Made by a program: the position numbers and the translations under genes. DNA of 64,000 bases, from positions 13,745 to 77,744 of the forward strand of contig CAZILC010000004.1 of the NCBI GenBank assembly GCA_964540055.1, written 5' to 3'. Positions 30,547-64,000 of this stretch are shown here, in pieces (positions within the stretch are counted from its first letter, which is position 1; every line of letters starts with the position of its first letter). The notes beneath the pieces are model-generated. The model worked only from the letters and a program-made list of their open reading frames with translations, was not told the origin of the DNA and made no database searches. The stretch comes from an uncultured Gammaproteobacteria bacterium (GTDB lineage: Bacteria; Patescibacteriota; Microgenomatia; Levybacterales; UBA12049).

Positions 30547-31804
30547 TTTTGGGGACTGGTAATGGTTTGATAAATTTCCCTTTAAATCCTTTCTCTTTTA
30601 ATTTGGTAATTAATTCATCTGCGATATGCCATGAAAGAAGAAATGCATATTCTGGTTGATCTTCGATCAACTTATCCTCATTGAGTACAGGTATGATTGT
30701 CCCCGGAATATAATGACCTATTTTATGTGAACCCTTAATTTCAACAACTGCATCAATTATTCCATCATCTAGTCCGAGATAATTTATCAAAGTCGTGCCG
30801 CGAGAAGGTGCACTAATACCATAAATTTTCTCTCCTTTTAATTTAATATTGCCCAGTAATTTATATAATCGTAATTTTGAATCTATGACATTTTTCCTAA
30901 ACACAGCAAAAGACTTTGTATCTGTTACTGCTGATTTCTCCTTTTTAAGAAGTTTTTGTACGGTTTTTTGAATAGGATATAATCCTTTTTTTGCCGAATA
31001 CACGCGTATTGAACCACCATGTGAAGGAATTTCTTTAGCATGAAAAACCTCTAAACCATGTAATTTAAGAAGATAAATTAAGCTATGGAGTGAATAGTAG
31101 CGTAAATGTTCATGATAGATAGTATCATATTGCACATTAGTGATAAAGGGTAAAAGGTAATGAGATTCACTTATAAACACCCCATCTTTTTCAAGAAGAG
31201 AAACAATATTTTCAATCACTTCGTGAATATTTTCCATGTGTGCAAAAACATTGGTAGCGGTGATAATCTTTGCCTTTCCATACTTTTCTTTAACGGCTTT
31301 CGTTGTGCTTTTATTAAAATACTCAAGAATTGTCGGTATCCCTTGTTTGATGGCCAATTTTCCGATATCCTCAGGTGTTATCCCTAAAACAATATGATTT
31401 TCTTTAAAATTTTTTAACAGATTGCCATCATTTGATCCGATATCGATAACGAGATCATCTTTTTTTAGATTAATCAATTTTGTACTTTCCGTATAAAGCT
31501 CTGCGAAATTTTCTCTTAAAACTTTGGTCGTACTACTAGTGTAAGGATAACTTTCAGAAAATAATATTTTTGGATCTACGATAAGACCAATCTGGACAAG
31601 TTTGCACTTACTACAAAAAAGTAATTCTGCCGGGTAACTTGGTTGTTCATGCGGTTTTGTGCCGATTTTTGGCATTGTATTCACTGGAGGCATGTATCCT
31701 AAAAAAATTATAGATTTAAGTTTTGGATTTTGACAAGTTTGACAAGAAGTAACAACGATAGCTGTATTTGATCCGAACGCTCGTGGTAAAATATCTTTCA
31801 TCAA
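30536..31804 (-). CDS. NDP-ketosugar C-methyltransferase, paralog 3 of 3
   Basis: Motifs are CQTC...CSKC, VIDIGSNDG, TATNVFAH and YHEHLRY. Confidence 0.7.
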   Translation of the reverse strand: MMKDILPRAFGSNTAIVVTSCQTCQNPKLKSIIFLGYMPPVNTMPKIGTKPHEQPSYPAELLFCSKCKLVQIGLIVDPKILFSESYPYTSSTTKVLRENFAELYTESTKLINLKKDDLVIDIGSNDGNLLKNFKENHIVLGITPEDIGKLAIKQGIPTILEYFNKSTTKAVKEKYGKAKIITATNVFAHMENIHEVIENIVSLLEKDGVFISESHYLLPFITNVQYDTIYHEHLRYYSLHSLIYLLKLHGLEVFHAKEIPSHGGSIRVYSAKKGLYPIQKTVQKLLKKEKSAVTDTKSFAVFRKNVIDSKLRLYKLLGNIKLKGEKIYGISAPSRGTTLINYLGLDDGIIDAVVEIKGSHKIGHYIPGTIIPVLNEDKLIEDQPEYAFLLSWHIADELITKLKEKGFKGKFIKPLPVPKIIE

Positions 31805-39737: not shown

Positions 39738-40764
39738 TTTTCTTTCTACTGTTCCATAGTTTGAGATACATTGTTGCCATATTATCCCAAGTTTGTTTTG
39801 TAACCCACTGATATGATTTTTCAATCAATTTATTTTCTTCTTGAGGATGTGTTAAAAAATATGAAATTTTTTCAGCAAGTTTTTGAGTAGAATTTTCTAT
39901 GATAATCCATTCCGCATAAGGTGCCAATTTCAAATAATCTTCTTTCACGGGATTATCATATACTGCAAAGACTAATCGTTTTGCCGCAAATGCTTCAAGA
40001 ATCGAAAGATAGCGTGAAACAAAAGCGAAATGATATTGGGGGAAATATCTTTCAGGATTTTCTATGAAACCGGACAGTTTAAAATTTTTTCCTAACTTCT
40101 TTCTATCAGGTCCATCGCCAATAATAGTAAATACAAATTTTGGAAATTTTTTCCTAACTAATTCAATCGCTTTGGAGTATGTTAAAACCCCTGTTTGTTC
40201 ATCCAAACGTCCCATGAATACAGCAGATTCTTTCTTCATTTTTATTTCTCTAGAATTTTTTTTCGGAATGTCTACTGCACCATATGAAACAACTGTAGGT
40301 TTTGTCCCGTACCATTTCGGAATAAAATCGCCAATACAAATGTTCCCCCATGATAACTTCTCTGAAATTTTTCTCGTCCAAATAGCACCTTTTCTAATCG
40401 GATAAGTTTCATACCCATGGAATGTAGTATATACAGGATTTTGGAGATAGAGAAAACGAAAAGGCAAATACCAAAAAAAGACATCATGACAATGAACGAC
40501 ATCAGCTTCTTGTAAAAGAGAACGAAATCGCCACATTTCTTTCCAAATGGTGATTTTTCGCTTACCCGATTTATCATTAACAGCAATTCGATTAACAATT
40601 ATTCGATTAACTATTTCTGTTTTAGGCAATGACTTATCAAACTGTTCTGTTATTACAGTAACCTGATGCCCTTTTTCTATTAATCTCTTTGAAATCTCCA
40701 TAACGTGCTTTTCTACTCCACCAATGTGAGGATAAAAAAGTCGAGAAAGAAAAAGTATTTTCAT
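39727..40764 (-). CDS. GT4-family glycosyltransferase
   Basis: The N-terminus is MKILFLSRLFYPHIGGVEKHV. It has an ATGA overlap with the upstream membrane protein gene. Confidence 0.6.
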   Translation of the reverse strand: MKILFLSRLFYPHIGGVEKHVMEISKRLIEKGHQVTVITEQFDKSLPKTEIVNRIIVNRIAVNDKSGKRKITIWKEMWRFRSLLQEADVVHCHDVFFWYLPFRFLYLQNPVYTTFHGYETYPIRKGAIWTRKISEKLSWGNICIGDFIPKWYGTKPTVVSYGAVDIPKKNSREIKMKKESAVFMGRLDEQTGVLTYSKAIELVRKKFPKFVFTIIGDGPDRKKLGKNFKLSGFIENPERYFPQYHFAFVSRYLSILEAFAAKRLVFAVYDNPVKEDYLKLAPYAEWIIIENSTQKLAEKISYFLTHPQEENKLIEKSYQWVTKQTWDNMATMYLKLWNSRKKITF

Positions 40765-42581
40765 AGATTCAAAATTTTTTTGTTAGAAATTTTTTTGGAT
40801 ATTTTAATATAAATGCAACTTAAAACTAATATTATTAAAGAGACTAAACTGATACATTTGCCTAAAAAAGTAAATATAGTATCAGTAAATATCACTTTAA
40901 CATCATATAACCCCTTAGGCAGAATAAAAATAATTTTGCCAATATCTTTTTGATTTTTATAATTTATAGTTATCTCTTTATTATTAGCAATTACCCTCCA
41001 TCCAGGAAAATAAAATGTATTCTCCTTTATTACAGAGTCTTTATTGACCATTATAATATATTCATGGAGCTGAGGAGTTCGAATAATTTGTTTATATGAC
41101 AAGTTGCCGGAAATCAATTCAATAGGACTTTTTCTCCTATACTTTAAAGAAGCTAAATCTTTAATTTGACTTCTTTGTCGATATAACTTTTCATAAAAAG
41201 GATCTCCACTAATCATATATTCAGTATACTCATCACTATGAATAAAATAATCGTTCGGATTGTAAGATACCATTTTTCTACTACCCCAATTAAGCATTGT
41301 TATAACAACTGTCAAAAAACAAATTACAATAATAATTTTTAATTCTTTGATTTTACTTATTATGATTCCGGCTATAAAAGCAGTAATAAATCCTATCACT
41401 ACAAGAAGTCTCCATACCATAAGGAAGAAATTTAAAAAAGTAAAATAGTCCCAAAAAAATTTTGCATAAGTCTGCATCAGAAAAAAATAGAAAACAAAGG
41501 CTATAAGAAGATATACAAGAAGCAATTTTATATAACTATTAAATAGATTTCTTTTTCTGAATAGAAGGAATATAGTAATGATAACTATCAAAAGCTGTGA
41601 ATAACCTACAATGAGTCGGTATTCAGCATTATTGCCTTGAAAGAGAAACCCATACCTCGAAGGTGAATACAAATAATTTTGTAAAGGTTCAATATAATCC
41701 GTTGGGCCATTATGAGCTGTCCATGTGTATTTTGCTTCAAAAAAAGCAGGCAACCAATAATATGCCGAGAGCATAATGCCTGTTAAATATGAAAGTGCAA
41801 GTATAAATATTCGTCTAATAGAAAAATTTTTATACGTTTTTTTTAATATTATTAAATCGTATCCAATAAGAAGCGGTATCGTGGAAAATGTTGTAACTGA
41901 ATGCGAATATAAAAGAAAAATTATTGATGCAGTTACGAATAAAAAGTTTCGGATATTTTGCTGTAGTATCAGTCTTCTGCTAAAAAGAAACACTAAAGGA
42001 ATAAAAACATATGAAAGTACTTCTCCTACTGATGCACGAAAATAGAGATCTATTAAGTGATATGGAGAAAACAAATAAAAAATTGCTGCTATCACTCCAG
42101 CCCTTTCATTTAATTCTTCTTTTATAAACAAATACATAAAAATTCCCGAAAAAATGAAAGAGAATGCTAATACAAGCTTTATACTATTTAAAAATGAAAA
42201 TCCTATCAAATGAAACACGGATCCAAAATAATAGGAAAGAATGTATGAAAAAATAAATACTGGGCACCCGTTACCAGCACAAAAATCAGCTGCCCAACGA
42301 GGAACAAATATACCAAAAGATAAATTCTGATAAAAAGCCCGTAGATATTCTGTATGATTAGATAAATCTCCACCTTGAAAGGTTCCAGTTTTAAAAATGT
42401 TAAGAATTGCTGGAATGGATAGTAAAAATAGCAATATCAAAGGATTGATATTTTTTTTAGGAAAGATAAAATGGTATGCCAGTAAAGCAAAAATTGTGAC
42501 TACGGATAAAAGGAAAGGTATAAAAATTACTGATTGCTGACCTAAAATAATTATTTGATAAAAATTCTCAAAAATCCTCAT
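40761..42581 (-). CDS. YfhO / 'PTPS-related'-type GT-C-like membrane protein, paralog 3 of 3
   Basis: 606 aa with QGGDLSNH, YLFSPYHLIDLYFRASVGEV and C-terminal ENTFYFPGW. Confidence 0.55.
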   Translation of the reverse strand: MRIFENFYQIIILGQQSVIFIPFLLSVVTIFALLAYHFIFPKKNINPLILLFLLSIPAILNIFKTGTFQGGDLSNHTEYLRAFYQNLSFGIFVPRWAADFCAGNGCPVFIFSYILSYYFGSVFHLIGFSFLNSIKLVLAFSFIFSGIFMYLFIKEELNERAGVIAAIFYLFSPYHLIDLYFRASVGEVLSYVFIPLVFLFSRRLILQQNIRNFLFVTASIIFLLYSHSVTTFSTIPLLIGYDLIILKKTYKNFSIRRIFILALSYLTGIMLSAYYWLPAFFEAKYTWTAHNGPTDYIEPLQNYLYSPSRYGFLFQGNNAEYRLIVGYSQLLIVIITIFLLFRKRNLFNSYIKLLLVYLLIAFVFYFFLMQTYAKFFWDYFTFLNFFLMVWRLLVVIGFITAFIAGIIISKIKELKIIIVICFLTVVITMLNWGSRKMVSYNPNDYFIHSDEYTEYMISGDPFYEKLYRQRSQIKDLASLKYRRKSPIELISGNLSYKQIIRTPQLHEYIIMVNKDSVIKENTFYFPGWRVIANNKEITINYKNQKDIGKIIFILPKGLYDVKVIFTDTIFTFLGKCISLVSLIILVLSCIYIKISKKISNKKILNL

Positions 42582-46026: not shown

Positions 46027-46056
46027 TTGCCAATACTATAAGCCATGTGATACAAT
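46027..46056 (+). promoter_or_regulatory. Sigma70-like promoter, TTGCCA-18 nt-TACAAT with a TG extension
   Basis: The -10 overlaps the GTG at 46047 offered by the ORF track, which argues for the ATG at 46068 as the true start. Confidence 0.4.
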
Positions 46057-46067
46057 CCTACTTTACT

Positions 46068-47288
46068 ATGTCTCATGAAAGAAGATCACCTTTGGTAAGA
46101 AGAATCAGAAGTACTCGAGATATTTCGGTTGGTACCGCTCTGGACACTCCAGCTAGCACTGAAATAAGGCGGGAAAATCACAAAAGAATGTTCCCGCATT
46201 TTATGCATGGTGAATCTTGGACACTAGGTGATGTAGCTCGGGATATCCCTGTTGTTCCAAATGTATATCCAGATGTCTATTTTAGAGGTGTTAATGGTGA
46301 AACTCGATTTGCCGTGTCAGATTTTACTGGCTCCGTTTCTCCCCACCTTCAAAATCTTATTGTTGAAGCAGCTGCACTTACTTTACATACTTATCGTGGA
46401 CCCAAGGAAGTAGAAATTTTTCTTGTTGAAAATATGATTGATATTTCAACAAGACGCAAAGTAAACGCCGCAGGCTCTCATACGCGCATAAATGGCCATT
46501 CGTTTATAACAGTCGCAACTGAAACAATGCGTCGATATACTGATGGGACACTACTGCCCTCATATGTTTTAGAAGAGAAAGCTGCGGGTGTGGGTGCACA
46601 TGAAGCATGGCATGCAATAATGAGAAACAATGGAGTAGCTTATACGCATGCTCCAAATAGAACTCAAGCAGAATATGAAGCACATCCCGAAGAGACACAA
46701 GCGAGGAGTGTTGCAAGAGATATTGTCCAGCAGATGAGAGTAAGTAATCAATTACATCATTTGGATATTCATCACGCACAAACAGGATTTCATGGCGTTA
46801 GTACTGAGCCGGTTTCAGCAGGACAGCGGGGAACAAAAGAAGTTTGGCTGCCCAGTGAAATGATGGATACCTGGTATCCGGGTCCTTTGCGAAGACTTGA
46901 GACAGGTGATGCAATTATGTATGAACATCTTGTTTTTCCACCCGATACGCACACCTTTCCTAGAATACGTCAAATGAATCATGGCACTATGCCGTTTCAA
47001 ATAGCTGAACTTGTGGATACACCTGAGCATGTGGTAGATACAGTTCTGCAATCAAGCGCACAAACTCTGCAGGATCACGGAATAATTCCCACAAGACCTA
47101 TGAGAATTATTTTTAGTGATGTTATTGCTGGAACTCCTCTTTCCAATCCCGCCCGATATCTCCCGCAAAGTGGCATTATCGCAGTCGGTCTAGATAATCT
47201 CGCACGAGAAAGTCAGCAATTACACGCTGCTTCGCAACTCGCCCGAGGAGTCACAGAAGAATTTTTAGCGAGTAGCTTCCGTCCATAA
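46068..47288 (+). CDS. Hypothetical protein with an HExxH motif (possible Zn-metallopeptidase-like fold)
   Basis: About 406 aa with no TM or signal peptide. It carries GVGAHEAWHAIM. The N- and C-terminal halves look weakly similar to each other by eye. Confidence 0.35.
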   Translation: MSHERRSPLVRRIRSTRDISVGTALDTPASTEIRRENHKRMFPHFMHGESWTLGDVARDIPVVPNVYPDVYFRGVNGETRFAVSDFTGSVSPHLQNLIVEAAALTLHTYRGPKEVEIFLVENMIDISTRRKVNAAGSHTRINGHSFITVATETMRRYTDGTLLPSYVLEEKAAGVGAHEAWHAIMRNNGVAYTHAPNRTQAEYEAHPEETQARSVARDIVQQMRVSNQLHHLDIHHAQTGFHGVSTEPVSAGQRGTKEVWLPSEMMDTWYPGPLRRLETGDAIMYEHLVFPPDTHTFPRIRQMNHGTMPFQIAELVDTPEHVVDTVLQSSAQTLQDHGIIPTRPMRIIFSDVIAGTPLSNPARYLPQSGIIAVGLDNLARESQQLHAASQLARGVTEEFLASSFRP

Positions 47289-48043: not shown

Positions 48044-48619
48044 ATGGAATTTGCTCGAAAAGCCTACTTCTTCACTCTCGATCTGTTACAAACCGTTCTG
48101 CTGGCAGCATCCATTTTTCTGGTAATTTATATTTTCCTCTTCCGCCCCTTCCAGGTAAGCGGTGACTCCATGTACCCGACATTCAAAAACGGCGAATATA
48201 TCCTGACTAATCTCATCGCACTTCGCACCAACGGTCTCCAGCGGGGAGACGTCATTGTTTTCCAGGCGCCGCCTGATGCTGAAAAAGACTTTATCAAACG
48301 CGTCATCGGACTTCCCGGGGATACAGTGGAGCTCAAAAACGGTTTTGTGTATGTGAACGGCAAGAAGCTCGATGAAAGTGTCTATTTGCACAGTGATGTA
48401 CGAACGTATGGAGGAGCATTTCTGAAGGACAATCAACCGATTACCGTCCCCGCGGACAATTATTTCGTAATGGGAGATAATAGGCCTTTCAGTTCGGATT
48501 CACGTGAATGGGGCTTACTCCCCCGTCCCAAAGTCATAGGAAAATCCTTCTTCGTCTATTGGCCGGTAACGAACATGAGACTAGTACATAATCCATTCCC
48601 TCCGGACTTACAGAAGTAA
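48044..48619 (+). CDS. lepB: Signal peptidase I
   Basis: It has an N-terminal TM, SGDSMYPTF (catalytic Ser), KRVIGLPGD (Lys) and GDNRPFSSDSREWG. Confidence 0.9.
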   Translation: MEFARKAYFFTLDLLQTVLLAASIFLVIYIFLFRPFQVSGDSMYPTFKNGEYILTNLIALRTNGLQRGDVIVFQAPPDAEKDFIKRVIGLPGDTVELKNGFVYVNGKKLDESVYLHSDVRTYGGAFLKDNQPITVPADNYFVMGDNRPFSSDSREWGLLPRPKVIGKSFFVYWPVTNMRLVHNPFPPDLQK

Positions 48620-50251: not shown

Positions 50252-51328
50252 CTATCTAATTTCCAGCACATTCTTGTGTTTTTCACCACGAAGCATAGCA
50301 GTGAGCATTCCTAGGAAAATAAAATTAGAAAGAAGCGAACTGCCGCCGAATGAGACAAATGGTAATGGAACTCCCACTATCGGCATAATGCCCAGATTCA
50401 TACCAATATTTACAAATGCCGGCAAGAGAAAAAATCCAAAAGCACACGCTGCAAAAATTCGAACAAACCTATCCTTACTGCCTCCAAAAATTTTGAAAAT
50501 CCGATAACAAAGAACAAGTAATGAAGCAAGAATAATTACCGCACCGATAAAGCCTAGTCCTTCGGAAATCGTTGCAAAAATAAAATCTGTCTGGCGCTCA
50601 GGAAGAAAGCGCAGACCTGATTGTGTTCCTTCAGACAAACCTTTTCCTAGAAACGTTCCGGAACCGACCGCGATGAGTGCTTGAATGCTGTTATAGGAAA
50701 CTCCAAGCGGATCGGCTTGAGGATTGAGAAATGTTAAAATTCTCGTTCGCTGATACGCGTGTAATTTCTCCCAAATGACCGGCATAAGAATAAGTACCGG
50801 CAAAAAAAGATAGACAAACCACCTATACGGATACCCGTCAATTAGCAGTGCAAATAACGCTACCAATATATAAAGAAGCGCACTTCCCAAATCCGGCTGA
50901 AAATAAACAAGAAAAAAGATCGGCAGGACAAAGAGAAAGGACATGAGAAACGACTTACGCTCAACAGTGGTTTGTTCGGCTAGATATGCAGCAAAAATGA
51001 GAGACAAAAACGGTTTGAGAATTTCAGAAAATTGCAGACGAATCCCGAGAATATCAATCCACCTCACTGCTCCATGACTTTCAATACCAATGGCAAGGGT
51101 AATTAATAAAAAAACTACAGCAAGTATATAAATAGAACCTTTAAATTGCTTAAAAAAGGCAATATTTATTTGAGAAAACGCAAAAAAAGCAACTAATGCG
51201 ATGATAAGTGAAATAAGCTGCGTTTTGAAATAAGCGAAATTAAGAGAAAGCAGCGTCACGAGACTAATTGAAATAAGAATAATAACCGGAAGTAACAAAA
51301 AAAAATCAATACGGAGAAGATTCTTCAT
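50252..51328 (-). CDS. SEDS-family peptidoglycan glycosyltransferase (RodA/FtsW)
   Basis: 358 aa with about 10 TM, PERQTDFIFATISEGLGFIGA and MPIVGVPLPFVSFGGSS. Confidence 0.85.
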   Translation of the reverse strand: MKNLLRIDFFLLLPVIILISISLVTLLSLNFAYFKTQLISLIIALVAFFAFSQINIAFFKQFKGSIYILAVVFLLITLAIGIESHGAVRWIDILGIRLQFSEILKPFLSLIFAAYLAEQTTVERKSFLMSFLFVLPIFFLVYFQPDLGSALLYILVALFALLIDGYPYRWFVYLFLPVLILMPVIWEKLHAYQRTRILTFLNPQADPLGVSYNSIQALIAVGSGTFLGKGLSEGTQSGLRFLPERQTDFIFATISEGLGFIGAVIILASLLVLCYRIFKIFGGSKDRFVRIFAACAFGFFLLPAFVNIGMNLGIMPIVGVPLPFVSFGGSSLLSNFIFLGMLTAMLRGEKHKNVLEIR

Positions 51329-54329: not shown

Positions 54330-54884
54330 CTACCTTGCACACCAATAACAGAGATTAGTCCCACCTTGGGATTTACATGAGGTTCCCTGAGCACCTCCTT
54401 GGGTGTATTTAGTATTTGGATCCAGCTGTTGCGAATTTGACTGCGGCTCAAAACAAGCTACTGTATCGGTAGCATTTCCGCTTTGCGGGTCAGGATTGGT
54501 AATAATAACTTTTGAGAGATTTGCTGTCTGTGAGAATGATGCTTTCAGTTCTCCATTTGAAACGAGGGTGGTGATACAATTCGCAAGACTGTTCAATGGT
54601 ACTGCATTGAGGGTGTTTCCCCCACTGTAACAGTTGGCGCCACCATTGGCTACACTAAACCATGGCAGAGCATTGATTGTTGAATAATAACTGGTATTTG
54701 CTCCAACAAATTCAGTCGCAATATTTTTAAGACTGGTATCCTGACCTTTTCGAAGCTGTTCAACAGGATTGATAGCTGCAAGAAGTGCTGCCGCAAGGAT
54801 ACCGAGAATACCGAGTACAACAAGAAGTTCGATAAGGGTAAACCCTTTATGTGAAGAAAATAAGTTTCGAAACTTTATACTCAT
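54330..54884 (-). CDS. Type IV pilin-like protein (prepilin N-terminal cleavage/methylation domain)
   Basis: It carries KGFTLIELLVVLGILGILAA and C-terminal Cys residues. I prefer the ATG at 54884 because the GTG at 54923 falls inside the promoter spacer. Confidence 0.8.
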   Translation of the reverse strand: MSIKFRNLFSSHKGFTLIELLVVLGILGILAAALLAAINPVEQLRKGQDTSLKNIATEFVGANTSYYSTINALPWFSVANGGANCYSGGNTLNAVPLNSLANCITTLVSNGELKASFSQTANLSKVIITNPDPQSGNATDTVACFEPQSNSQQLDPNTKYTQGGAQGTSCKSQGGTNLCYWCAR

Positions 54885-54900
54885 AGTATCTATCACAATA

Positions 54901-54930
54901 ATTACAACATACTTTGAATTCACTTGTCAA
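54901..54930 (-). promoter_or_regulatory. Sigma70-like promoter, TTGACA-18 nt-TGTAAT
   Basis: On the minus strand it lies 16 nt upstream of the pilin ATG. Confidence 0.4.
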
Positions 54931-54975: not shown

Positions 54976-55794
54976 TCACTTAATTTGCTCTCTGCCGAAG
55001 ACATACAAACTGGCAAGCAGAATAAATAATTGGAGAATACTAATAATATAATCAAAACCGGATGCTCCCGACTGAGAAATAGATGGTGCTAGTACACCAT
55101 AAATAAGAGATCCACTGTAAAATAAGCCATTCGCGACCAGGGTTGTTCTCCACCAATTCCATCGATACATTTTATACTGCAAAATTACCCACAACCAGAA
55201 GATAACCATGGGGACAAAAAGAATTACGATAAAAGTGAATGAATACGTATCAACAGTTGCTTTCGAATTTCCGCCACCTATCATAAAAAAAGATGCAATA
55301 AATAGAAATACCGAAATTACAAATGAATATCCCCACAAAGCCATCTGGATCATTCCCCATTTAGGAAAAGTTTTATGTTTTGGAACTTTTTTTTCTTCAG
55401 GGTACACCTGCTCCTTAGTCAGTCGGTACATAGCATACAAAAGCGGTATATCTATGGCGACACCGGCGATTGCATTAATAAGCAAATTGTTATCATCTTT
55501 ATAAATTGTTAAAAAGCTAAGTGATGATAGGATCGGAACAGTAGGAAATAAAGCGTAAATGAGGTATATAATATCAATCAAAATATAAATTCCCAAAAAA
55601 TACTGCCAGAAAAGTCTGGGAACAAATCGCTCATGAAATACATATTCAAATAACCCAAAAAGAGCAATTAAAAATATAACTGTCATCACAACTTGGGTAA
55701 AGATATGATATCCTGGGTCAAGGAACAAACCAGAAACCCCAAGTATCGCCTCCCCAACCGCAAGAAGAAAATACAATCTCCACAATATATTCAT
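54976..55794 (-). CDS. Hypothetical polytopic membrane protein
   Basis: 272 aa with about 8 hydrophobic spans and no recognisable motif. Confidence 0.45.
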   Translation of the reverse strand: MNILWRLYFLLAVGEAILGVSGLFLDPGYHIFTQVVMTVIFLIALFGLFEYVFHERFVPRLFWQYFLGIYILIDIIYLIYALFPTVPILSSLSFLTIYKDDNNLLINAIAGVAIDIPLLYAMYRLTKEQVYPEEKKVPKHKTFPKWGMIQMALWGYSFVISVFLFIASFFMIGGGNSKATVDTYSFTFIVILFVPMVIFWLWVILQYKMYRWNWWRTTLVANGLFYSGSLIYGVLAPSISQSGASGFDYIISILQLFILLASLYVFGREQIK

Positions 55795-55857: not shown

Positions 55858-55873
55858 CCTGCCTGCCGGCAGG
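55858..55873 (-). terminator. GC-rich hairpin CCTGCC-nnnn-GGCAGG (16-mer CCTGCCTGCCGGCAGG), copy 1
   Basis: It lies 8 nt downstream of the stop at 55882. The transcript reads CCUGCC-GGCA-GGCAGG followed by UUUC. The same 16-mer recurs inverted at 62639..62654. Confidence 0.4.
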
Positions 55874-55881
55874 GCTTTAGC

Positions 55882-57198
55882 TTAAAGGCAGGAGTAATCG
55901 TAGTCGAAATTATTAAGGGTGAATTGCGTGATTTGAATTGTACCGCCAGTTGTGAGAGACGAGAGGGAACAATTTGATTGTGCTCCTGGCAAATCTGATG
56001 CGCCTGGTCTCCAATTGGCAAGACCGTTAAGATTGCTGTCTGATGGGACTGTGCCGACAATGGTTGACCACATGAATGTTGTTGAATAAATGCCGACTTT
56101 GATATTTTGCGACTGAAGATAGGTCACCATGGCTTCAAGATCTACTCTGTTTCTCATTAACGCATCATCCGATCCACTATCCCATGAATTTGCCGTCTCA
56201 ACATCAAGCCACCATTGATAATCACTTGGTGTCGTATCAACTCCTACAGCTTGTGCAGCCGGGATAAATTTATTCTGTATATCATCAACAGCTCTATTCC
56301 AGCCGTATTGCCATGCACATGCGTTTGAGACTGAGCCATCACAGGTACCGTAAGGATTTGGCGAGGAATTACCTCTTGGGTCCGTATTGTTTGATGGCCA
56401 TTGCCCAGCTTGTCCCGGATTACCAGTGTTGAGATACAATTGTACTTTTGCCTGATTTTGAGTACCCAATGATTGTTGTGCCCAGAGAAGCTGCGTACTC
56501 AAACAAGGATTTGTCGTGGTCGCAATTCCTCCATTTACTCCAACTATGCCAAACCCCTGCCCAGTGGGTAGTGTCTGGCCGCATTGAGGATAGGAAATAT
56601 CATTGCCGAGTTTGGTAATTGTTGGCGTGGGAGTCGGAATTGCAGTTGGAGTCGCCGTAGGAGTCAAATCAGTCGTTGGAGTGGGAGTAACAGTTGCTGT
56701 AGGTGTCGGTGTGAGGGTCATTGTTGGAGTTGGTGTGGCAGTAGGCGTTGGTGAAACTGAAACCGTAGGCGTTGCGGTTGGAGTAGCAGTTGGTGTTGGA
56801 GTGACACGCATCGTTGGCGTTGGTGTTGCAGTTGGTGTAACTGAAACAGTTGGTGTTGGCGTAAGTGTCATTATGGACGTTGGCGTAGCATTTGGAGTAA
56901 TAGAAACTGTTGGTGTTGGCGTAGGTGTTGCTGAAATCGTAGGAGTAGGTGTCATCGTTGCTGCTGGAGTTACACTAACCGTGGGTGTTGGCATATCTGT
57001 CGGCAGCGGATCAGCTGTCGGAGTAAGTGAAGGTTCATCGCTAATGATTGGAGAAGGCATATCGGTAGGAGTACCTGAAACTACAATTGTCGGTGTCGGG
57101 GTGATATTTGTTGGGAAATCTACTGGGGTGAAAGGAAATGATGAAGAGCTGAGAAAGAGCGAAAGGAAGTGAAAACACGTGAGCAGCAAGTGATACAT
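55882..57198 (-). CDS. Secreted protein: signal peptide + ~165-aa Thr/Pro repeat stalk + GH25-like (lysozyme-type) C-terminal domain
   Basis: It has the hydrophobic N-terminus MYHLLLTCFHFLSLFL. The TPTPT(V/A)... repeats span residues ~30-194. The C-domain carries GNDISYPQCG, FGIVGVNGG and WWLDVE. The GH25-like call comes from motif memory only. Confidence 0.45.
   Translation of the reverse strand: MYHLLLTCFHFLSLFLSSSSFPFTPVDFPTNITPTPTIVVSGTPTDMPSPIISDEPSLTPTADPLPTDMPTPTVSVTPAATMTPTPTISATPTPTPTVSITPNATPTSIMTLTPTPTVSVTPTATPTPTMRVTPTPTATPTATPTVSVSPTPTATPTPTMTLTPTPTATVTPTPTTDLTPTATPTAIPTPTPTITKLGNDISYPQCGQTLPTGQGFGIVGVNGGIATTTNPCLSTQLLWAQQSLGTQNQAKVQLYLNTGNPGQAGQWPSNNTDPRGNSSPNPYGTCDGSVSNACAWQYGWNRAVDDIQNKFIPAAQAVGVDTTPSDYQWWLDVETANSWDSGSDDALMRNRVDLEAMVTYLQSQNIKVGIYSTTFMWSTIVGTVPSDSNLNGLANWRPGASDLPGAQSNCSLSSLTTGGTIQITQFTLNNFDYDYSCL
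56617..57111 (-). repeat. Coding tandem low-complexity repeat (TPTPTxSVTPTATP units)
   Basis: The DNA is visibly periodic (ggtgttgg / gttggagt units on the plus strand). It generates the GVGVGV shadow ORF at 56603..57172. Confidence 0.8.
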
Positions 57199-57277
57199 AA
57201 ATAAAATTAAACCACAATTTATATTGTCCTGTCAAGCTTTATTTATCTACGCATAAAATGAACGTACATTGATCAGT

Positions 57278-58194: not shown

Positions 58195-59019
58195 TTAAAA
58201 TGTAACAGGTTGTACCAATAATTCAGCTTCTCTTTCTTTAAAGGGAAAAACTGGTATTGTATCAAGGCTATTAGGGCCAACAAAAGGGAACATTCCCGAC
58301 AAAATTCTTTCGAGTATCTCTCTATTTGCTTTTTCTTCCTGTGGGGACCAGGTTCCATCTATTCTGTCTTCTAACTGTCCAAAAGCACGCGTATTTGGTA
58401 AATAATCTTCTGCAACTTTGCCTACTGCGCAAATATCTTGAGCCCATGCATCATTCATTGCCCGCGGCAAATGATCTTCAGAGGTTACAACAATAGCCTC
58501 ACTAGATTTTGTGTCGCGCATAATTTTTTTCAATCGCGTCATATTGGAAATAGTATCATACGATTGGGAATCAACGACCAAGTCCCGATCCCGCAATCTT
58601 TTATGGGTAAATCGTTTATATACTTTTTTTAAATAGCTTTCACCCTTTGCAGGTAAATCTACCTCGCCATCAACAAGCGCAATTTTAGGATTCATTCCCG
58701 GAGTAAGCTGTTCTTTAGCAAAGATTACAGCCCCTGCCTCAATTCTCTTTTTTTGTTTCATACTAAGATATCCTTCCCATCCGGCTGAGCCAAGAACAGC
58801 AACAATTGGACGATTTGTCCCCGCGTCAGGCTGCATACAGGAAATACCCGTAGGTGCAGTTGTATCTGCGCTTGCAGAAGGTACCGAACCTGCAACAGGA
58901 CCCAATAACAGTGATCCAGCCACAACAGCATTAACAGTTTTTCGAAACCCAGGCTTGAAAAAAGGTTCTTTTGAACTATGTTTGCCGGCATATCCCGCTC
59001 GATTTTCAGATCGTCCCAT
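58195..59019 (-). CDS. DUF218 (YdcF/ElyC-like) domain protein with N-terminal signal/anchor
   Basis: It carries AVVAGSLLLGPVAGSVPSASA and then IVVTSEDHLPRA, the DUF218 TSxxH motif. I prefer the ATG at 59019 over the TTG at 59058. Confidence 0.55.
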   Translation of the reverse strand: MGRSENRAGYAGKHSSKEPFFKPGFRKTVNAVVAGSLLLGPVAGSVPSASADTTAPTGISCMQPDAGTNRPIVAVLGSAGWEGYLSMKQKKRIEAGAVIFAKEQLTPGMNPKIALVDGEVDLPAKGESYLKKVYKRFTHKRLRDRDLVVDSQSYDTISNMTRLKKIMRDTKSSEAIVVTSEDHLPRAMNDAWAQDICAVGKVAEDYLPNTRAFGQLEDRIDGTWSPQEEKANREILERILSGMFPFVGPNSLDTIPVFPFKEREAELLVQPVTF

Positions 59020-59218
59020 AGTAGTGGATATTATAGCAAAAATGTACGTATTAAGCAAATATAATATGAGGTTTGAGTCAATAGTTTTTTGATATATTCA
59101 TTCGCCAAGATGCTAAATAGGTTCCGATAAATTACGACCGGGATTTTTTAGATCAATGGCGTGAAGACCAGAAATAAGACTCAGAGGTTGAATTCTTTGT
59201 ATATACGCTTATTCTTTA

Positions 59219-59926: not shown

Positions 59927-61165
59927 TTAGTTTCTCTGTCTGAGGAATGCGGGGATATCCCATTCGTCTTCGGCGCTTTTTTCTTCTTTTTTGTCATTCT
60001 GCTGCTGTTGTTGCTGCATTTGCGGTTGGTTGGTGAATGGATTGTGATCATCAGGATCTTGTTGCTGTTGCTGATTTTGCTGGTTTTGCTGCTGCTGTTG
60101 ATTTTGTTGGTTTTGTTGCTGTTGCATAAAAGGATCTTGTTGCCTACTCAAAGGGGTCGAACTAATCTCAGGTGTTGGTTGTGGGATGACAAATTGCTGT
60201 AGACGCTGTTTGGCCTGATCAAAGCCTGTCGCGACAACGGTGATTCTGATCTGATCATGCATTGATTCATCAATGGTGGCACCAAAAATAATATTCGCAT
60301 CAGGATCCGCTGCAGCTGAGATGATCTTTGCTGCTTCATCAACTTCAGACATGGTCAAATCAGGACCTCCGACTACATTAAACAAAACGCCTCGTGCCCC
60401 ATCCATTGAGACTTCAAGAAGCGGTGAAGCAATAGCAGAACGAGCTGCAGTTTGTGCGCGATTTTCGCCGATTCCTGAACCAATACCCATCAACGAGGAA
60501 CCTGCGTTGACCATAATATTTCGGACATCGGCAAAGTCCACGTTGATCAAACCCGGCATGGTAATAATTTCTGAAATTCCTTGAACTCCTTGGGTAAGAA
60601 CACTATCTGCGACCTTGAATGCGTCCAGAAGTGACAATTTACGATCAACTACTTCAAGAATCCGCTGATTTGGGATAACAATCAATGTATCGACTTTGTC
60701 TTTCAAATTGTCAATTCCCTCTTCAGCAGAAACCATCCTTCGGGTTCCCTCAAACATAAACGGCTTGGTAACAACCGCTACTGTCAAAGCACCGATTTCT
60801 TTTGCGACTTCAGCAACAACAGGTGTCGCGCCTGTTCCCGTACCGCCGCCCATACCAGCTGTGAGAAAGACCATATCTGATCCTTCAAGCACTGCCTTAA
60901 TTTTGTCACGAGATTCTTCAGCTGCCTCACGACCAATCTCAGGATCACCACCTGAACCGAGCCCTTTGGTGAATTGTTCACCAATTTGGATTTTGGTTTC
61001 AGCTTTGTTAAGAAGGAGTGCTTGCGCATCAGTATTGACGGTAACAAAATCGACTCCGGAAATATTTGCGCTTGAAATCATGGAGCCGATAGCATTGCTT
61101 CCACCGCCGCCAATTCCTATAACACGGATCTTGGCAAAATTGGTAGATTGAGGTCGAATCAACAT
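59927..61165 (-). CDS. ftsZ: Cell division protein FtsZ with a Q/N-rich C-terminal linker
   Basis: Motifs are [20 protein letters not shown] and the C-terminal peptide [10 protein letters not shown] prefer the ATG at 61165 because the TTG at 61183 abuts the predicted -10. Confidence 0.95.
59999..60142 (-). repeat. Coding CAG/CAA-rich low-complexity tract (FtsZ linker [22 protein letters not shown]...QQQQQQ)
   Basis: The plus strand shows ttgctg/ttgttg repeats, which generate the poly-Leu shadow ORF at 59807..60202. Confidence 0.85.
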
Positions 61166-61183
61166 AGTAGTGGACTTTGTCAA

Positions 61184-61212
61184 ATCCTACCAGATGTCCT
61201 AGGTAATTGCAA
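61184..61212 (-). promoter_or_regulatory. Sigma70-like promoter, TTGCAA-17 nt-TAGGAT upstream of ftsZ
   Basis: On the minus strand it would give a leader of only about 12 nt to the ATG at 61165. Confidence 0.35.
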
Positions 61213-61320
61213 GCCCGTAAAACACATTTTTTTATTGAATACTGTTCAAAGTCATCCCAACCAAAACAAAAACCGAAAGTAAATAAAAGAAGATGCATGG
61301 AACAGCTAATCTGATAATAC

Positions 61321-62601
61321 CTAGGGAATGAATGTTTTGACGAGGTTTAGGAGTTTTTTGACGACTTTGCCAACATTCATATTGCCGCCGGGGATGCCGA
61401 TTCGAAGAGTTGATTCTTTAGAAGTCGTTGATGTCATACCGTAGCGGATCAAACCAACCGCTGTTGAAAATGCAGGATGCTGGACTTCATCAATAATTCC
61501 CTTCACGTCTGTTGGCATACCAATTCTGACTGGCATCGCAAGCGTTCGTCGTGCCGCATCACGCAGACCCACTGTCAACGCTCCGCCGCCGGTGAAGACT
61601 ACACCTGCTGGAGTTTGAGCTGCGAATCCACTTTTCTTAATTTCTAAAGCAATCATTGTACAAATTTCATTCAGGCGCGGCCTGATAATCCCATCAACCA
61701 ATGTCTTCTGTGAAACTTTACGAATATCCTCAGCCAAATTGAGCGATGAGAGATCTACCTCATCAGATGGTTTCTGCTCCTTTTCACCTTCATCGGGCCG
61801 TGCAACACGTTTGCTTTGGGTTTGGGAGAAATACAGTTTGATCTTTTCAGCACTTTCAAGGGAGATTCGAAGGCCAATTGCGAGGTCGTTGGTGACATGG
61901 CGGGCGCCAATTGCCAAAACACTGGAGTATGCCATTGACCCTTCGGTATAAATGGCAATATCTGTTGTCCCTGCTCCGATATCAACCAGCACAACTCCCA
62001 ACTCCTTTTCAGTGTCGGACAAAACTGAAAGTGAGCTTGCATATCCACTGAAAGCAAAACTATCCACATCCACTCCCACCTCTGAAAAAGCTTTCTCCAG
62101 ATTGCGAAGTGAAACCGTATTTGCAGTAACTATATGCGTATCTACTTCTAAACGTGTGCCAGACATGCCGACAGGATCTTTAATCCCTTCCTGTCCATCA
62201 ACGATATAATTGCGGGGCAATACATGAATAATATCCCGTGTTGAGGGGATTGAGATTGCTTTTGCAGCATCAATCACCCGTTGCAGATCACTTTCGGTTA
62301 TTTCACCATTTGGTGTCGCGACAGCGACTACACCGCGGGAATTTTGGCAGCTGATCTGGCTTCCACCAAGTGAAACAATGACATGGGATGCTGAATAGCC
62401 AGCCATTCTTTCTGCTGATTCGAGTGAACTATTAATTGCATGTACTGCTTCTTCAATATCAACGACCTGACCTTTGCGGATACCTTGGGATTTTACTTCA
62501 GAAACACCAAGAACACTAATAACATTTTCTACTACTTTAGCAATGACTGTGACGATTTTATAGGTGCCGACATCAATTGCAACAATTATTCTTCCTTCCA
62601 T
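61321..62601 (-). CDS. ftsA: Cell division protein FtsA
   Basis: Actin-fold motifs VAIDVGTYKI, VLVDIGAGTTDIA and VFTGGGALTVGL. Confidence 0.9.
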   Translation of the reverse strand: MEGRIIVAIDVGTYKIVTVIAKVVENVISVLGVSEVKSQGIRKGQVVDIEEAVHAINSSLESAERMAGYSASHVIVSLGGSQISCQNSRGVVAVATPNGEITESDLQRVIDAAKAISIPSTRDIIHVLPRNYIVDGQEGIKDPVGMSGTRLEVDTHIVTANTVSLRNLEKAFSEVGVDVDSFAFSGYASSLSVLSDTEKELGVVLVDIGAGTTDIAIYTEGSMAYSSVLAIGARHVTNDLAIGLRISLESAEKIKLYFSQTQSKRVARPDEGEKEQKPSDEVDLSSLNLAEDIRKVSQKTLVDGIIRPRLNEICTMIALEIKKSGFAAQTPAGVVFTGGGALTVGLRDAARRTLAMPVRIGMPTDVKGIIDEVQHPAFSTAVGLIRYGMTSTTSKESTLRIGIPGGNMNVGKVVKKLLNLVKTFIP

Positions 62602-62638
62602 AATTTTGTAAACACGTACTTACGATGAACTTAACTTG

Positions 62639-62654
62639 CCTGCCGGCAGGCAGG
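62639..62654 (-). terminator. GC-rich hairpin, copy 2 (CCTGCCGGCAGGCAGG, the reverse complement of copy 1), between ftsQ-like and ftsA
   Basis: The minus-strand transcript reads CCUGCC-UGCC-GGCAGG. It lies 52 nt after the ftsQ-like stop and 37 nt before the ftsA ATG. It could be an attenuator or an RNA-stability element rather than a full terminator. Confidence 0.35.
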
Positions 62655-62705
62655 CACAAAACAGAGCGGAAAACTCCGCATCTTTAGGCAGTTGTGAACA
62701 AGCCT

Positions 62706-63152
62706 CTAAGGTTTTATCACAATAACGGGTTGTGCGAACCTTAGGTCCAATGAACTGAACTGTCTCCCTTCCATTGTAAGATGTGAAAGGATATATTGTA
62801 AAGAGGCTATTTGCGCCATTATATCCTTTTGCGCCGAAAAAGTCACTTTACTATCATCAGCAAGAGTTATTACATAAGAATCACTTTGTTTTTCAACTGA
62901 TTGAAATACTATTTGCTTTTTTCGCAATCCATTTTCAATTTGTCCAACTTCCAATTCTCCTTGATCAGCCGCTTGTGCAATCTGCGTCGTGGGAAGTGGA
63001 CTCACAAAAAGCGGCTTTTCTAATTTGGCAAGTAAGGAATAAAATCCTATGCCGAGAAGAACAATTCCAATCGCAAAAAAGAACGATGAATAGAACAGTA
63101 CTCTTTTAATATGGCGCCGGCGTTTACGCGGCAATTCTTGTTTCTTTTTCAT
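62706..63152 (-). CDS. Short FtsQ/DivIB-like bitopic protein (call by position)
   Basis: 148 aa with a basic N-terminus, one TM (VLFYSSFFFAIGIVLLGIGFYSLL) and ~95 aa outside. It occupies the ftsQ slot between murG and ftsA. Confidence 0.4.
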   Translation of the reverse strand: MKKKQELPRKRRRHIKRVLFYSSFFFAIGIVLLGIGFYSLLAKLEKPLFVSPLPTTQIAQAADQGELEVGQIENGLRKKQIVFQSVEKQSDSYVITLADDSKVTFSAQKDIMAQIASLQYILSHLTMEGRQFSSLDLRFAQPVIVIKP

Positions 63153-64000
63153 GGGCAGCCAGGACTACTTTAATAATTTTTCCAGCAGCTTCAGGATGGA
63201 TCAATTTTCTTGCCTCTTCTTTATGTTTTTTGTAATTTTGTAAACTGGACATCATAGCGTTAACTCTTTCATACAAATCATCTGGAGCAGTTGTAAGCTG
63301 ATCGACGAATTCTGCCAAACCGATCTTTTTAACAAATGCAGCGTTTGTCAGCTGCTCATTTTTCTGACCATAAGGTAGAGGGATAAACAAACTTGGTTTG
63401 CCCAGATACAACAATTCAGTGACAGTATTAATACCAGAACGCGCAATCACAAGATCAGCTCGATCCATAATAGACAAGACATCTTCAGGTTTGACGAATT
63501 TTTGCGGCAAATACTTTTTCTGCAAATCTTCTGGAAGCGTTGCTTGTAAACGTTGCAGCCGTTCAAAATCACCAAATTCTTTCGCGTCACCTGTCTGATG
63601 TACAACCGTAAACTTCTCCAACAATTTCTCCAAACACCCCTCAACCAACAGATTAATCCCATGCGCCCCCCCACTGCCACCGGTAATATAAATCAATGGC
63701 AATGAGGAAATTCCATTTCCTATTCCTGACTCCTTATTCCCTTGCATAAACTCTTTTCTTAATGGATTCCCCGTCAGCACAATTTTATTCTTGGGAAAAA
63801 ACTGCGCCGAATCAACCCATGAAATACAAATTTTCTTTGCAAACTTTGCAGCTATTTTATTTGCCAAACCAGCGTGCAGTGTCTGCTCATGAATGACAAT
63901 TGGCACACTGCTTCCTGCTGCTGCCAAAACGACGGGAACACTCACATAACCCCCAAAGGAGAGTACAACGTCCGGTTTGAATTGTGAAAGTATCTTTTTT
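63124..64000 (-). CDS. murG: MurG (UDP-GlcNAc:lipid I GlcNAc transferase), N-terminus beyond the right window edge
   Basis: The frame stays open upstream of the listed GTG (...KKILSQFKPDVVLSFGGYVSVPVVLAA). It carries ITGGSGGAHGIN and ARSGINTVTELL. Confidence 0.85.
   Translation of the reverse strand, partial: KKILSQFKPDVVLSFGGYVSVPVVLAAAGSSVPIVIHEQTLHAGLANKIAAKFAKKICISWVDSAQFFPKNKIVLTGNPLRKEFMQGNKESGIGNGISSLPLIYITGGSGGAHGINLLVEGCLEKLLEKFTVVHQTGDAKEFGDFERLQRLQATLPEDLQKKYLPQKFVKPEDVLSIMDRADLVIARSGINTVTELLYLGKPSLFIPLPYGQKNEQLTNAAFVKKIGLAEFVDQLTTAPDDLYERVNAMMSSLQNYKKHKEEARKLIHPEAAGKIIKVVLAAHEKETRIAA

Follow-up and report, generated by a model that had tools for sequence, protein, structure and literature searches.

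The gene at 55882-57198 (minus strand) of the 64,000-nucleotide stretch of DNA analysed here (the window) probably encodes a hydrolase of peptidoglycan glycan strands, exported and most likely tethered to the membrane, that is of the Chalaropsis/GH25 N-acetylmuramidase type and belongs to a divergent, uncurated sister family of GH25. The reading frame, which the first-pass annotation had placed at these positions, is intact. It runs from ATG to TAA and specifies 438 amino acids in three segments: a hydrophobic leader of 23 residues comes first, a Thr/Pro stalk of 164 residues lies in the middle, and the C-terminal domain takes up 244. Logan contig SRR9179560_964949 carries the identical protein; there is no second copy of the gene within the 64 kb window. 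The GC content of the frame (47%, against 35% for the window) raised the question of recent horizontal acquisition. This was rejected: the surplus sits at second codon positions, and the GC3 of the domain (0.38) resembles that of neighboring genes, which argues that the gene is native.

Reading the upstream sequence, we noted a promoter-like element (TTGACA-18 nt-TTTAAT with TG before the second hexamer; 57206-57235, minus strand) that ends 7 nt upstream of the ATG. It received no call in an automatic promoter scan because position 2 of its second hexamer is not A. The short spacing, together with the absence of a Shine-Dalgarno sequence, suggests that the transcript may be leaderless or almost so. 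Directly 3' of the stop codon, a GC-rich palindrome (55858-55873, minus strand) could form a weak terminator-like hairpin, and the next gene has a promoter of its own, TTCACA-18-TATAAT (55839-55810, minus strand).

Kinship with GH25 is apparent in the predicted fold of the C-terminal domain (residues 195-438; 55885-56616, minus strand). The AlphaFold2 model (pLDDT 93, pTM 0.91) predicts eight strands and five helices arranged as a barrel, with a terminal beta7-beta8 hairpin. In a Foldseek search of the PDB, GH25 muramidases took all of the top nine places (E 3e-4 to 8e-3, probability 0.98-1.0, TM 0.47-0.56); the matches that followed fell below a probability of 0.9, with TM about 0.3. Likewise, the top 35 viral matches in BFVD were all GH25 phage lysozymes. 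A TM of about 0.5 indicates substantial divergence from the GH25 structures, and the domain shares only 11-15% sequence identity with characterised GH25 enzymes. It escapes every sequence model applied. Pfam and NCBIfam gave no match to the protein or the domain, Pfam none even at E values up to 10, and phmmer and hmmsearch against the PDB yielded no usable match, the family HMM finding no GH25 chain. The two Pfam families with a GH25 fold, PF01183 and PF08924, were each matched weakly by a single member among 60 homologues (E 0.019 for the former and 0.0087, below cut-off, for the latter); the window protein itself has no PF08924 match.

When the family profile was aligned by hhalign with a small GH25 profile built from phage records (11 endolysin sequences), it scored probabilities of 68-71%, below the usual 90-95% level, with P values of 5e-6 to 5e-5. 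The best alignment (probability 71%, P 4.9e-6) spans 178 columns, and the reversed control gave P values of 0.2-0.5. Alignment of the family with the single Cpl-1 sequence failed (probability 1%), and a protein search started from Cpl-1 brought up nothing but relatives of at least 80% identity, which are unsuited to profile building. Failure of PF01183 and of every other sequence model points to a separate, uncurated family; the model and the alignments support placing the domain as a distant sister of GH25 and not as a member of the Pfam GH25 family. We found no paper on this lysozyme-like family in the literature.

The residues expected of a GH25 active site are in register. All four motifs read as GH25-like in the first-pass annotation (GNDISYPQCG, FGIVGVNGG, WWLDVE and VGIYST) are present, and their columns are at least 90% conserved among 34 homologues, several being invariant. 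hhalign pairs four acidic residues with those of the Cpl-1 active site. Asp200 (domain D6; 56599-56601, minus strand), on strand 1, aligns with Cpl-1 Asp10. Asp332 and Glu334 (domain D138/E140; 56197-56205, minus strand), on strand 4, form the D-x-E of WWLDVE, the motif that defines GH25 (PMC7954357), and correspond to Cpl-1 Asp92 and Glu94. Asp432 (domain D238; 55903-55905, minus strand), on the last strand, matches Cpl-1 Asp182. In a set of 60 diverse homologues (38-78% identity), the first three are invariant and Asp432 is kept in at least 90%. The signature Tyr and Gln positions of GH25 are retained as well. Since the predicted fold matches GH25 only and the four conserved acids align with the Cpl-1 active site, the GH25-like reading of the first-pass annotation is supported, in the form of a distant sister family.

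The manner of export is less conventional. The leader (residues 1-23, MYHLLLTCFHFLSLFLSSSSFPF; 57130-57198, minus strand) has the hydrophobic core of a Sec signal (Kyte-Doolittle maximum 1.83 over a 15-residue span) and a candidate cleavage site at Ser17-20. It lacks the basic N-region, there being no Lys or Arg in residues 1-30. The motif MF..LL(S/A/T/G)C.H..S.FF is common to the closest stalked orthologues, among which it is conserved while the stalk cannot be aligned; the remaining stalked subgroups have differing Phe/Leu-rich leaders, likewise free of Lys and Arg. Homologues of the short form carry canonical signal peptides immediately N-terminal to the domain, with Lys or Arg within residues 2-8 in 123 of 159. 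The LL(S/A/G/T)C portion was considered as a lipobox and rejected: an authentic one (L-[AS]-[GA]-C) lies at positions 15-35 after a basic N-region, and here the Cys is at position 8, in the orthologues' LL[SAG]C as well, with Thr at -1 and no such region. The leader's composition and the conservation of its motif among the closest orthologues fit a retained anchor better than a cleaved signal, and we therefore favor the former on these sequence features. The hydrophobic N-terminal signal originally described is thus present as a hydrophobic leader, one more probably retained than cleaved. Six Cys conserved in the domain fit an extracytoplasmic protein.

One could nonetheless envision a freely secreted enzyme, the leader being non-canonical but still cleaved by the Sec machinery and the Thr/Pro region serving as a protease-resistant glycosylated tail and not as a tether. 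We regard this as possible, though not likely. The four serines at positions 17-20 are small residues that could satisfy the -3/-1 rule, a signal peptidase I gene is present at 48044-48619, and in other lineages the homologous proteins are of a simple secreted type. Yet this leader has no basic N-region, whereas canonical signals do occur in the same genome, as in the DUF218 protein at 58195-59058; conservation of the motif would be unusual for a peptide that is discarded, and a long linker bearing nothing at its far end would have no obvious role.

The stalk (residues 31-194; 56617-57108, minus strand) is the sole Thr/Pro-rich segment across all frames of the window. Its 164 residues include 59 Thr, 41 Pro and 11 Ser, with Thr and Pro together making up 61%. 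It had been described as about 165 residues of tandem repeats at 56617-57111. The Thr/Pro character and, very nearly, the extent of this description hold; the clean repeat does not. Searches including TRF detected only a trivial, degenerate 6-nt periodicity, with DNA copies 60-82% identical and spaced by multiples of 6 nt. In the protein, Thr/Ser alternates strictly with Pro/Val/Ala/Ile/Met in a period of two residues (self-identity 0.36-0.48 at even lags, 0.00-0.03 at odd lags). Codon usage for Thr and Pro is mixed, which argues that the composition is maintained at the protein level and did not arise by recent slippage. Orthologues differ in the length of the stalk, which ranges from 0 to about 225 residues. 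Viewed as a linker, the stalk has the leader as its only N-terminal partner, an observation that we counted toward the anchor reading.

Taken together, these features allow the following scheme to be proposed. The leader would insert the protein into the membrane and probably remain there as an N-terminal anchor. The alternating 164-residue segment, probably bearing O-linked glycans, would act as an extended spacer. With about 0.3 nm for each residue, its length could be up to roughly 50 nm, which would let the domain pass the cell's own wall and project further outward. The barrel would then cut the MurNAc-GlcNAc backbone by means of Asp332-x-Glu334, assisted by Asp200 and Asp432, presumably through the substrate-assisted mechanism proposed for GH25, if the predicted fold and aligned residues are a reliable guide.

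Where would such an enzyme act? Our default is the producer's own envelope, in wall remodelling or cell separation, which we consider slightly more likely as a target than the wall of a host. This preference stems from the position of the gene, flanked by those for FtsW (50252-51328) and FtsZ/FtsA/MurG (59927-63945), and from the wall-anchoring modules found in free-living relatives. The gene belongs to a block with the conserved order GH25-like gene, membrane protein, pilin, IleRS, FtsW. The second member (54976-55794, minus strand), adjacent to the GH25-like gene in close relatives too, is a 272-residue membrane protein with about eight helices; it is lineage-restricted (41 homologues), and its moderate AlphaFold2 model gave no fold match (best E 1.4). 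The third (54330-54923, minus strand) resembles a type IV pilin and carries an N_methyl motif. Synteny with the division genes is confined to close relatives and may therefore reflect inheritance and not a functional linkage. Given the reach of the stalk, the enzyme might also act on a neighboring cell.

The first-pass annotation had raised the idea that, in an episymbiont, a stalked muramidase could act on a host wall. As a host-directed weapon or docking enzyme, it would thin or open host peptidoglycan at the point of contact and thereby assist episymbiont attachment, pilus passage or nutrient uptake. We judge this unlikely, although several observations speak in its favor. The inferred span of the stalk would suit such a role, and the conserved block sets the enzyme beside a type IV pilin. 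In the tree of the family, which is present in at least 598 species genomes (at least 1,335 clusters at 50% identity), the sequences of Saccharibacteria and Actinomycetota are interleaved, a pattern suggestive of genes passing between episymbionts and the phylum of their hosts. Actinomycetota are the known hosts of Saccharibacteria, which are proven episymbionts. GH25 lysozymes transferred between domains of life have a precedent as antibacterial weapons (PMC4241558). In addition, a lysozyme homologue of Southlakia epibionticum, encoded beside virB4, is reported to be essential for epibiotic growth (cited in PMC12102498); it need not belong to the present family. Against these points, the family is frequent in free-living Actinomycetota too, such as Arthrobacter and Blastococcus, the Saccharibacteria themselves possess the short form without a stalk, the gene sits amid the cell's own division and wall genes, and no immunity gene is evident. 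The genes flanking the actinobacterial homologues (P450, permeases, YceI and others) are unrelated and uninformative on function.

It is tempting to speculate further that the family serves to breach walls and has passed repeatedly between Actinomycetota and their CPR episymbionts, and that the Levyibacteriota form, rebuilt with an anchor and a glycosylated stalk about 50 nm long, extends over the gap between cells and opens host peptidoglycan next to a type IV pilus. Such a scenario seems decidedly improbable to us. If true, it would define a new kind of contact-dependent lysozyme and provide a handle on how episymbionts choose and enter their hosts.

A hydrolase with a GH25 fold might also be directed at some other polymer of N-acetylhexosamines, such as a secondary wall polymer, an S-layer or pilin glycan, a chitin-like polymer or an exopolysaccharide. 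This is a more doubtful proposition still. It draws on the strong divergence of the domain from characterised enzymes, on the genome's heavy investment in glycan synthesis, and on a conserved insert, about 35 residues long, that follows strand 3 (domain residues 64-97) and distinguishes the family from GH25. The insert has the consensus NTGNPG...WP..N.DP.G...NPYG.C....CAWQYGWNRA, and its conserved Trp, Pro, Asn and Cys adjoin the predicted active site. Rv2525c of Mycobacterium tuberculosis sets a further example, as a relative with a GH25 fold that is not known to have lytic activity. On the other hand, all four acids of the Cpl-1 active site are retained along with the signature Tyr and Gln positions, the partner modules found elsewhere in the family (SLH and CWB2) bind cell walls, and characterised GH25 enzymes are all muramidases (PMC7954357).

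Derivation from a prophage or a phage endolysin, which the many phage lysins among the structural neighbors might evoke, is effectively refuted: a tblastn search with the domain found no match among 50,697 phage records, no phage genes lie nearby, GC3 is native, the chromosomal position is kept in relatives, and the export leader would be atypical for a holin-dependent endolysin.

CPR bacteria (Patescibacteria) account for much of bacterial diversity. All known cultivated members live attached to other bacteria, and little is known of how they remodel their own walls or breach those of their hosts. Our preferred reading, that of an exported and probably anchored muramidase, would assign a probable function, based on modelling and alignment, to a family labelled only "hypothetical" in public databases. 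Since cultivable Arthrobacter, Sinomonas and Blastococcus carry members, direct testing is feasible. Should the protein turn out to be a housekeeping autolysin only, the result would be a useful annotation and not a discovery.

The properties of the stalk inspire analogies with the Pro-Thr linkers of glycoside hydrolases from Cellulomonas and Caldicellulosiruptor, which are heavily O-mannosylated by GT39 enzymes (PMC12757957). The sequence style is almost the same (TPTPTPSVTPSPTP..., TPTPTATATP); in both cases the linker is part of a secreted glycoside hydrolase, and in both the genome encodes GT-C glycosyltransferases. By this analogy it is plausible that the stalk is O-glycosylated. The same suggestion for the pilin, made in the first-pass annotation, found no support. 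Those linkers join two folded domains, whereas here the catalytic domain is joined to a 23-residue hydrophobic leader, and the 164 residues of the stalk exceed several-fold the 29 and 63 residues quoted in the same article. The enzymes differ as well. The GT-C abundance noted at the outset is real, seven candidate membrane glycosyltransferases of this type lying between 1.4 and 42.6 kb of the window, but unlike those of the GT39 systems their matches are limited to PMT_2, PTPS_related and YfhO, all of them broad models; PF02366 (PMT, GT39) has no match within the window. PMT_2 (PF13231) has three matches there, one being also TMEM260-like and one below threshold. The GH25-like gene lies 13 kb outside this glycan island, amid cell-division genes. 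In one relative (L022), a gene matching both PF02366 and PF13231 is found 2 kb from a stalked paralogue. Many GT-C glycosyltransferases of CPR genomes are unexplained, and the stalked form provides a concrete candidate for their substrate.

The domain itself is best compared with Chalaropsis-type GH25 enzymes: cellosyl (1JFX), Cpl-1 (2IXV/1H09), the Bacillus anthracis enzyme (2WAG), fungal muramidases (6ZM8, 6ZMV and 2X8R) and SleM (5JIP). As in these, the barrel of the predicted model has eight strands, the last of them antiparallel, and five helices; the strand-1 Asp, strand-4 D-x-E and last-strand Asp are in register, Tyr residues follow strands 3 and 5, a Gln lies on strand 7, and the biology is exported or wall-directed. 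Unlike them, the window protein falls below every Pfam and NCBIfam threshold, its helices are distributed otherwise (strands 1 and 2 have none between them, and a helix follows strand 6), and six conserved Cys mark its family; choline-binding, SH3, LysM or similar modules are replaced by the Thr/Pro stalk and the atypical leader.

Rv2525c (PF08924), a Tat-secreted protein, belongs to an exported family of Actinomycetota that has the GH25 fold and unproven activity, and resembles the present family in this respect. In contrast to that family, the window protein and 59 of its 60 homologues have no PF08924 match, and the signals are Sec-like or atypical instead of twin-arginine; no entry described as Rv2525c appeared among the top 50 Foldseek matches in the PDB. 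In architecture there is a parallel with the wall-anchored autolysins of monoderms. Family members from other lineages combine the domain with three SLH or three CWB2 modules, or with fn3 or TIG, and the SLH and CWB2 triplets stand where the leader and stalk sit here. The window protein differs from such autolysins in having no recognisable wall-binding module, so that any tether would be through the membrane.

The ORF at 55882-57198 (minus strand; ATG start, TAA stop) encodes a protein of 438 aa made of three parts: a hydrophobic leader, a Thr/Pro stalk and a C-terminal domain of 244 residues. With somewhat better than even confidence, we read it as an exported, probably membrane-tethered predicted muramidase set on an extended and probably O-glycosylated Thr/Pro spacer. 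The leader would direct export and would probably be retained as a membrane tether; the stalk, probably O-glycosylated, would be an extended spacer carrying the domain; and the GH25-like domain would act as a muramidase on the wall. The GC content of the ORF is 47% against 35% for the window, the excess coming from second codon positions. Since GC3 in the domain (0.38) is like that of neighboring genes, the gene is native despite its high GC. A phage origin was rejected, as tblastn of the domain against 50,697 phage records gave no match and GC3 is native.

All the motifs that the first-pass annotation had likened to GH25 muramidases are present in the last 244 residues, in columns at least 90% conserved in 34 homologues and in several cases invariant. 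By curated sequence models, the domain is not a GH25 member: Pfam gave no match for the protein or the domain, even at E up to 10, NCBIfam gave none for the domain, and neither phmmer nor an HMM of 60 family sequences found one in the PDB. The family comprises 3,495 clusters at 90% identity (at least 1,335 at 50%), all "hypothetical" and devoid of precomputed Pfam domains among the 120 matches listed. When 60 members were scanned, Pfam yielded one sub-threshold match to PF08924 (Rv2525c-like; E 0.0087) and one to PF01183 (GH25; E 0.019), alongside comparably weak matches to several unrelated families. With 34 homologues as input, AlphaFold2 gives a confident model (pLDDT 93, pTM 0.91) of eight strands and five helices that closes with a beta7-beta8 hairpin; the GH25 fold is an eight-stranded barrel with only five flanking helices, in which the last strand is antiparallel and the catalytic motif is D-x-E (PMC7954357). 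GH25 muramidases take all of the nine top places among Foldseek matches in the PDB (fungal 6ZM8, 6ZMV and 2X8R, cellosyl 1JFX, Bacillus anthracis 2WAG, Cpl-1 and SleM; probability 0.98-1.0, TM 0.47-0.56), followed by generic TIM-barrel hydrolases with probability below 0.9 and TM around 0.3. In the search of viral models, phage lysozymes fill the first 35 places.

Profile comparison points the same way. Aligned by hhalign to a GH25 profile of 11 sequences (the phage endolysin Cpl-1 and ten diverse phage endolysins), the family profile scored a probability of 71% globally (P 4.9e-6, 178 columns) and 68% locally (P 4.6e-5); reversed controls gave P 0.2-0.5. The alignment pairs Asp200, Asp332, Glu334 and Asp432 with Asp10, Asp92, Glu94 and Asp182 of Cpl-1, which are its four acidic active-site residues. 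In domain numbering (residue 1 being protein residue 195), D6, D138 and E140 do not vary among 60 homologues of 38-78% identity, and at least 90% of these keep D238; Y61, Y177 and Q231, also invariant in the 60, are in our reading the counterparts of the signature Tyr and Gln of GH25. Sequence and model together thus portray a sister family that has diverged from GH25 while its predicted catalytic apparatus stays intact: the initial GH25 reading is supported in the sense of a distant, uncurated family, not of a Pfam GH25 member.

The stalk (residues 31-194; 56617-57108, minus strand) contains 59 Thr and 41 Pro among its 164 residues and is the sole Thr/Pro-rich segment of its kind in all frames of the 64 kb window. 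This richness had been described as TPTPT-type tandem repeats, yet a clean tandem repeat is rejected: TRF reports only a trivial 6-nt array, and DNA copies are 60-82% identical at spacings that are multiples of 6 nt. The protein has a strict period of 2 (identity 0.36-0.48 at even lags, 0.00-0.03 at odd), one position being Thr/Ser and the other Pro/Val/Ala/Ile/Met. Because the Thr and Pro codons are mixed, the composition is kept at the protein level and does not stem from recent slippage. Orthologues have stalks of 0 to about 225 residues. A 189-aa Gly-Val-rich ORF (GVGVGV...) on the plus strand (56603-57172) was discarded as an antisense artefact of the stalk.

In Cellulomonas and Caldicellulosiruptor, GT39 enzymes heavily modify linkers whose sequence is nearly that of the stalk, a modification that can be coupled to secretion (PMC12757957); by this precedent, the stalk is probably O-glycosylated. 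The many GT-C-type membrane glycosyltransferases announced for the window are indeed there, as seven candidates: three PMT_2 (1413-3077; 26069-27625, also TMEM260-like; and 35670-37232, sub-threshold), three PTPS_related (3122-4906, 37965-39737 and 40761-42581) and one YfhO (9691-11811). The PMT-like genes are only of the broad PMT_2 type; a PF02366 gene is known 2 kb from a stalked copy in the related locus L022. With three GT4 and one GT2 genes, the seven candidates form a glycan-synthesis island (1413-47288) that also includes a Polysacc_synt_3 flippase (19692-20945), a UDP-glucose dehydrogenase-type gene (22052-23314), an epimerase/dehydratase (6818-7972), three paralogous sugar C-methyltransferase-type genes (7873-9123, 24709-25965 and 30536-31804) and several large ORFs with no Pfam match (17244-18482, 27683-29620, 34254-35564 and 46047-47288). 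The nearby pilin-like ORF had been proposed as a second glycosylation acceptor (54330-54923, minus strand, in its longest form from GTG 54923; the N_methyl motif better fits the ATG at 54884 assumed originally). Nothing marks it as a substrate, since its C-terminal half, which has four Cys, is not notably rich in Ser, Thr or Pro.

The GH25-like gene lies 13 kb outside the island, amid division and wall genes, in the order FtsW (50252-51328), IleRS, pilin, a 272-aa membrane protein, GH25-like, transaldolase, DUF218, FtsZ (59927-61183, minus strand), FtsA and MurG. The FtsZ C-terminus (59927-60100, minus strand) has a long low-complexity tail rich in Gln and Asn (...QQQQQQN), which the conserved C-terminal peptide follows. 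The membrane protein (54976-55794, minus strand; about eight helices), which in close relatives invariably separates the GH25-like gene from the pilin, is a lineage-restricted orphan: its 41 homologues in 5.8 billion proteins all belong to this lineage, and it matches no Pfam or NCBIfam model and no PDB fold. A promoter-like TTGACA-18-(TG)TTTAAT, read from the sequence (57199-57235, minus strand) and not called by an automatic promoter scan, ends 7 nt upstream of the ATG; no Shine-Dalgarno sequence precedes the ATG, and the mRNA may be leaderless. Past the stop codon there is a GC-rich palindrome, and the downstream gene has a promoter-like site of its own; the GH25-like gene looks monocistronic.

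Sampling one genome per species, we found the family in at least 598 genomes. The best 80 of these (at least 598) loci include Levyibacteriota, Saccharibacteria/Saccharimonadales and cultured Actinomycetota (Arthrobacter, Pseudarthrobacter, Sinomonas, Microlunatus, Blastococcus, Geodermatophilus and Modestobacter; 46-56% identity to the window domain). Mis-binning was rejected as the cause of this mixture, as locus GC cleanly separates CPR (0.36-0.54) from Actinomycetota (0.62-0.76) in the same 80 loci. Distance-based NJ trees of this sample do not separate the two: none of 200 bootstraps shows the CPR/Actinomycetota split. A Saccharimonadales copy (locus GC 0.52) and a Pseudarthrobacter copy (0.68) are 73% identical and paired in 86% of bootstraps, and the nearest neighbors of the Sinomonas and Microlunatus copies are Saccharibacteria in at least 99.5% of replicates; interleaved locus pairs are L069 and L073, L041 and L036, and L046 and L039. 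Such interleaving suggests repeated transfer between Saccharibacteria, which are episymbionts, and their host phylum, Actinomycetota. For GH25 lysozymes, both transfer across the domains of life and a role as antibacterial weapons are on record (PMC4241558).

One could envision a stalked enzyme directed at a host wall, as first proposed; the reach of the stalk, the neighboring pilin gene and the cross-phylum exchange all speak for it. However, the gene lies amid division genes, the family occurs in free-living Actinomycetota, and proven episymbionts carry the form without stalk. For these reasons we slightly favor remodelling of the bacterium's own wall. The linkage to division genes may itself be inheritance only, since the block from the GH25-like gene through membrane protein, pilin and IleRS to FtsW recurs in close relatives and is lost in more distant ones.

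Cleavage of a different N-acetylhexosamine polymer is a lesser alternative. In other lineages the catalytic domain is fused to SLH x3, CWB2 x3, fn3 or TIG; SLH and CWB2 are wall-anchoring modules, and these partners support a wall-directed role. The SLH x3 or CWB2 x3 fusions (proteins P0135, P0160, P0219 and P0231) come from Actinomycetota and other monoderm bacteria. Because RefSeq names them only by their anchoring modules, as for P0135 of Sinomonas susongensis (WP_138444658.1), named solely for its SLH domains, the catalytic domain goes unannotated even in cultured species.

The leader, MYHLLLTCFHFLSLFLSSSSFPF (residues 1-23; 57130-57198, minus strand), is hydrophobic and free of Lys or Arg. 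Short-form homologues from Saccharibacteria and Actinomycetota carry canonical signal peptides immediately ahead of the domain (Lys/Arg within residues 2-8 in 123 of 159, many signals ending in A-x-A), so the domain is predicted to be extracytoplasmic. The stalked forms make up one clade (94% bootstrap) from low-GC, Levyibacteriota-type genomes; each begins with a Phe/Leu-rich leader about 20 residues long, in most cases lacking N-terminal Lys/Arg. The closest stalked orthologues (P0005-P0024 and P0121) share the motif MF..LL(S/A/T/G)C.H..S.FF, with the basic N-region mostly absent and a His-rich stretch often next; other stalked subgroups have different Phe/Leu-rich leaders. The motif is in no other ORF of the window or the fetched loci and may serve this lineage as its own signal for anchoring or sorting; ordinary signal peptides are used elsewhere in the same genome, for instance by the DUF218 protein (58195-59058). 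A lipobox was rejected, the Cys being at position 8. A linker normally connects two modules. Because the leader is the stalk's only N-terminal partner and is better conserved than the stalk, we favor a retained signal-anchor over the lesser alternative of a free enzyme whose leader is cleaved off. In L022, a stalked paralogue of 469 aa (3000-4409; domain 79% identical, stalk of about 225 residues) and a stalk-less one of 263 aa (6001-6792; 64% identical, syntenic with the window gene) lie 1.6 kb apart, both within 3 kb; the public call of the stalked copy starts at 3183 and loses the leader.

We found no paper on this family in the literature; the only related report, as cited in PMC12102498, concerns a different, T4SS-linked lysozyme homologue essential for Southlakia epibiotic growth. 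The fold and chemistry are already known from GH25; the sequence family has no curated model, and the combination of leader and stalk is specific to the lineage. Compared with GH25, the AlphaFold2 model lacks the helix between strands 1 and 2, and the family has, as features of its own, a conserved insert that follows strand 3 and spans about 35 residues, and six conserved Cys.
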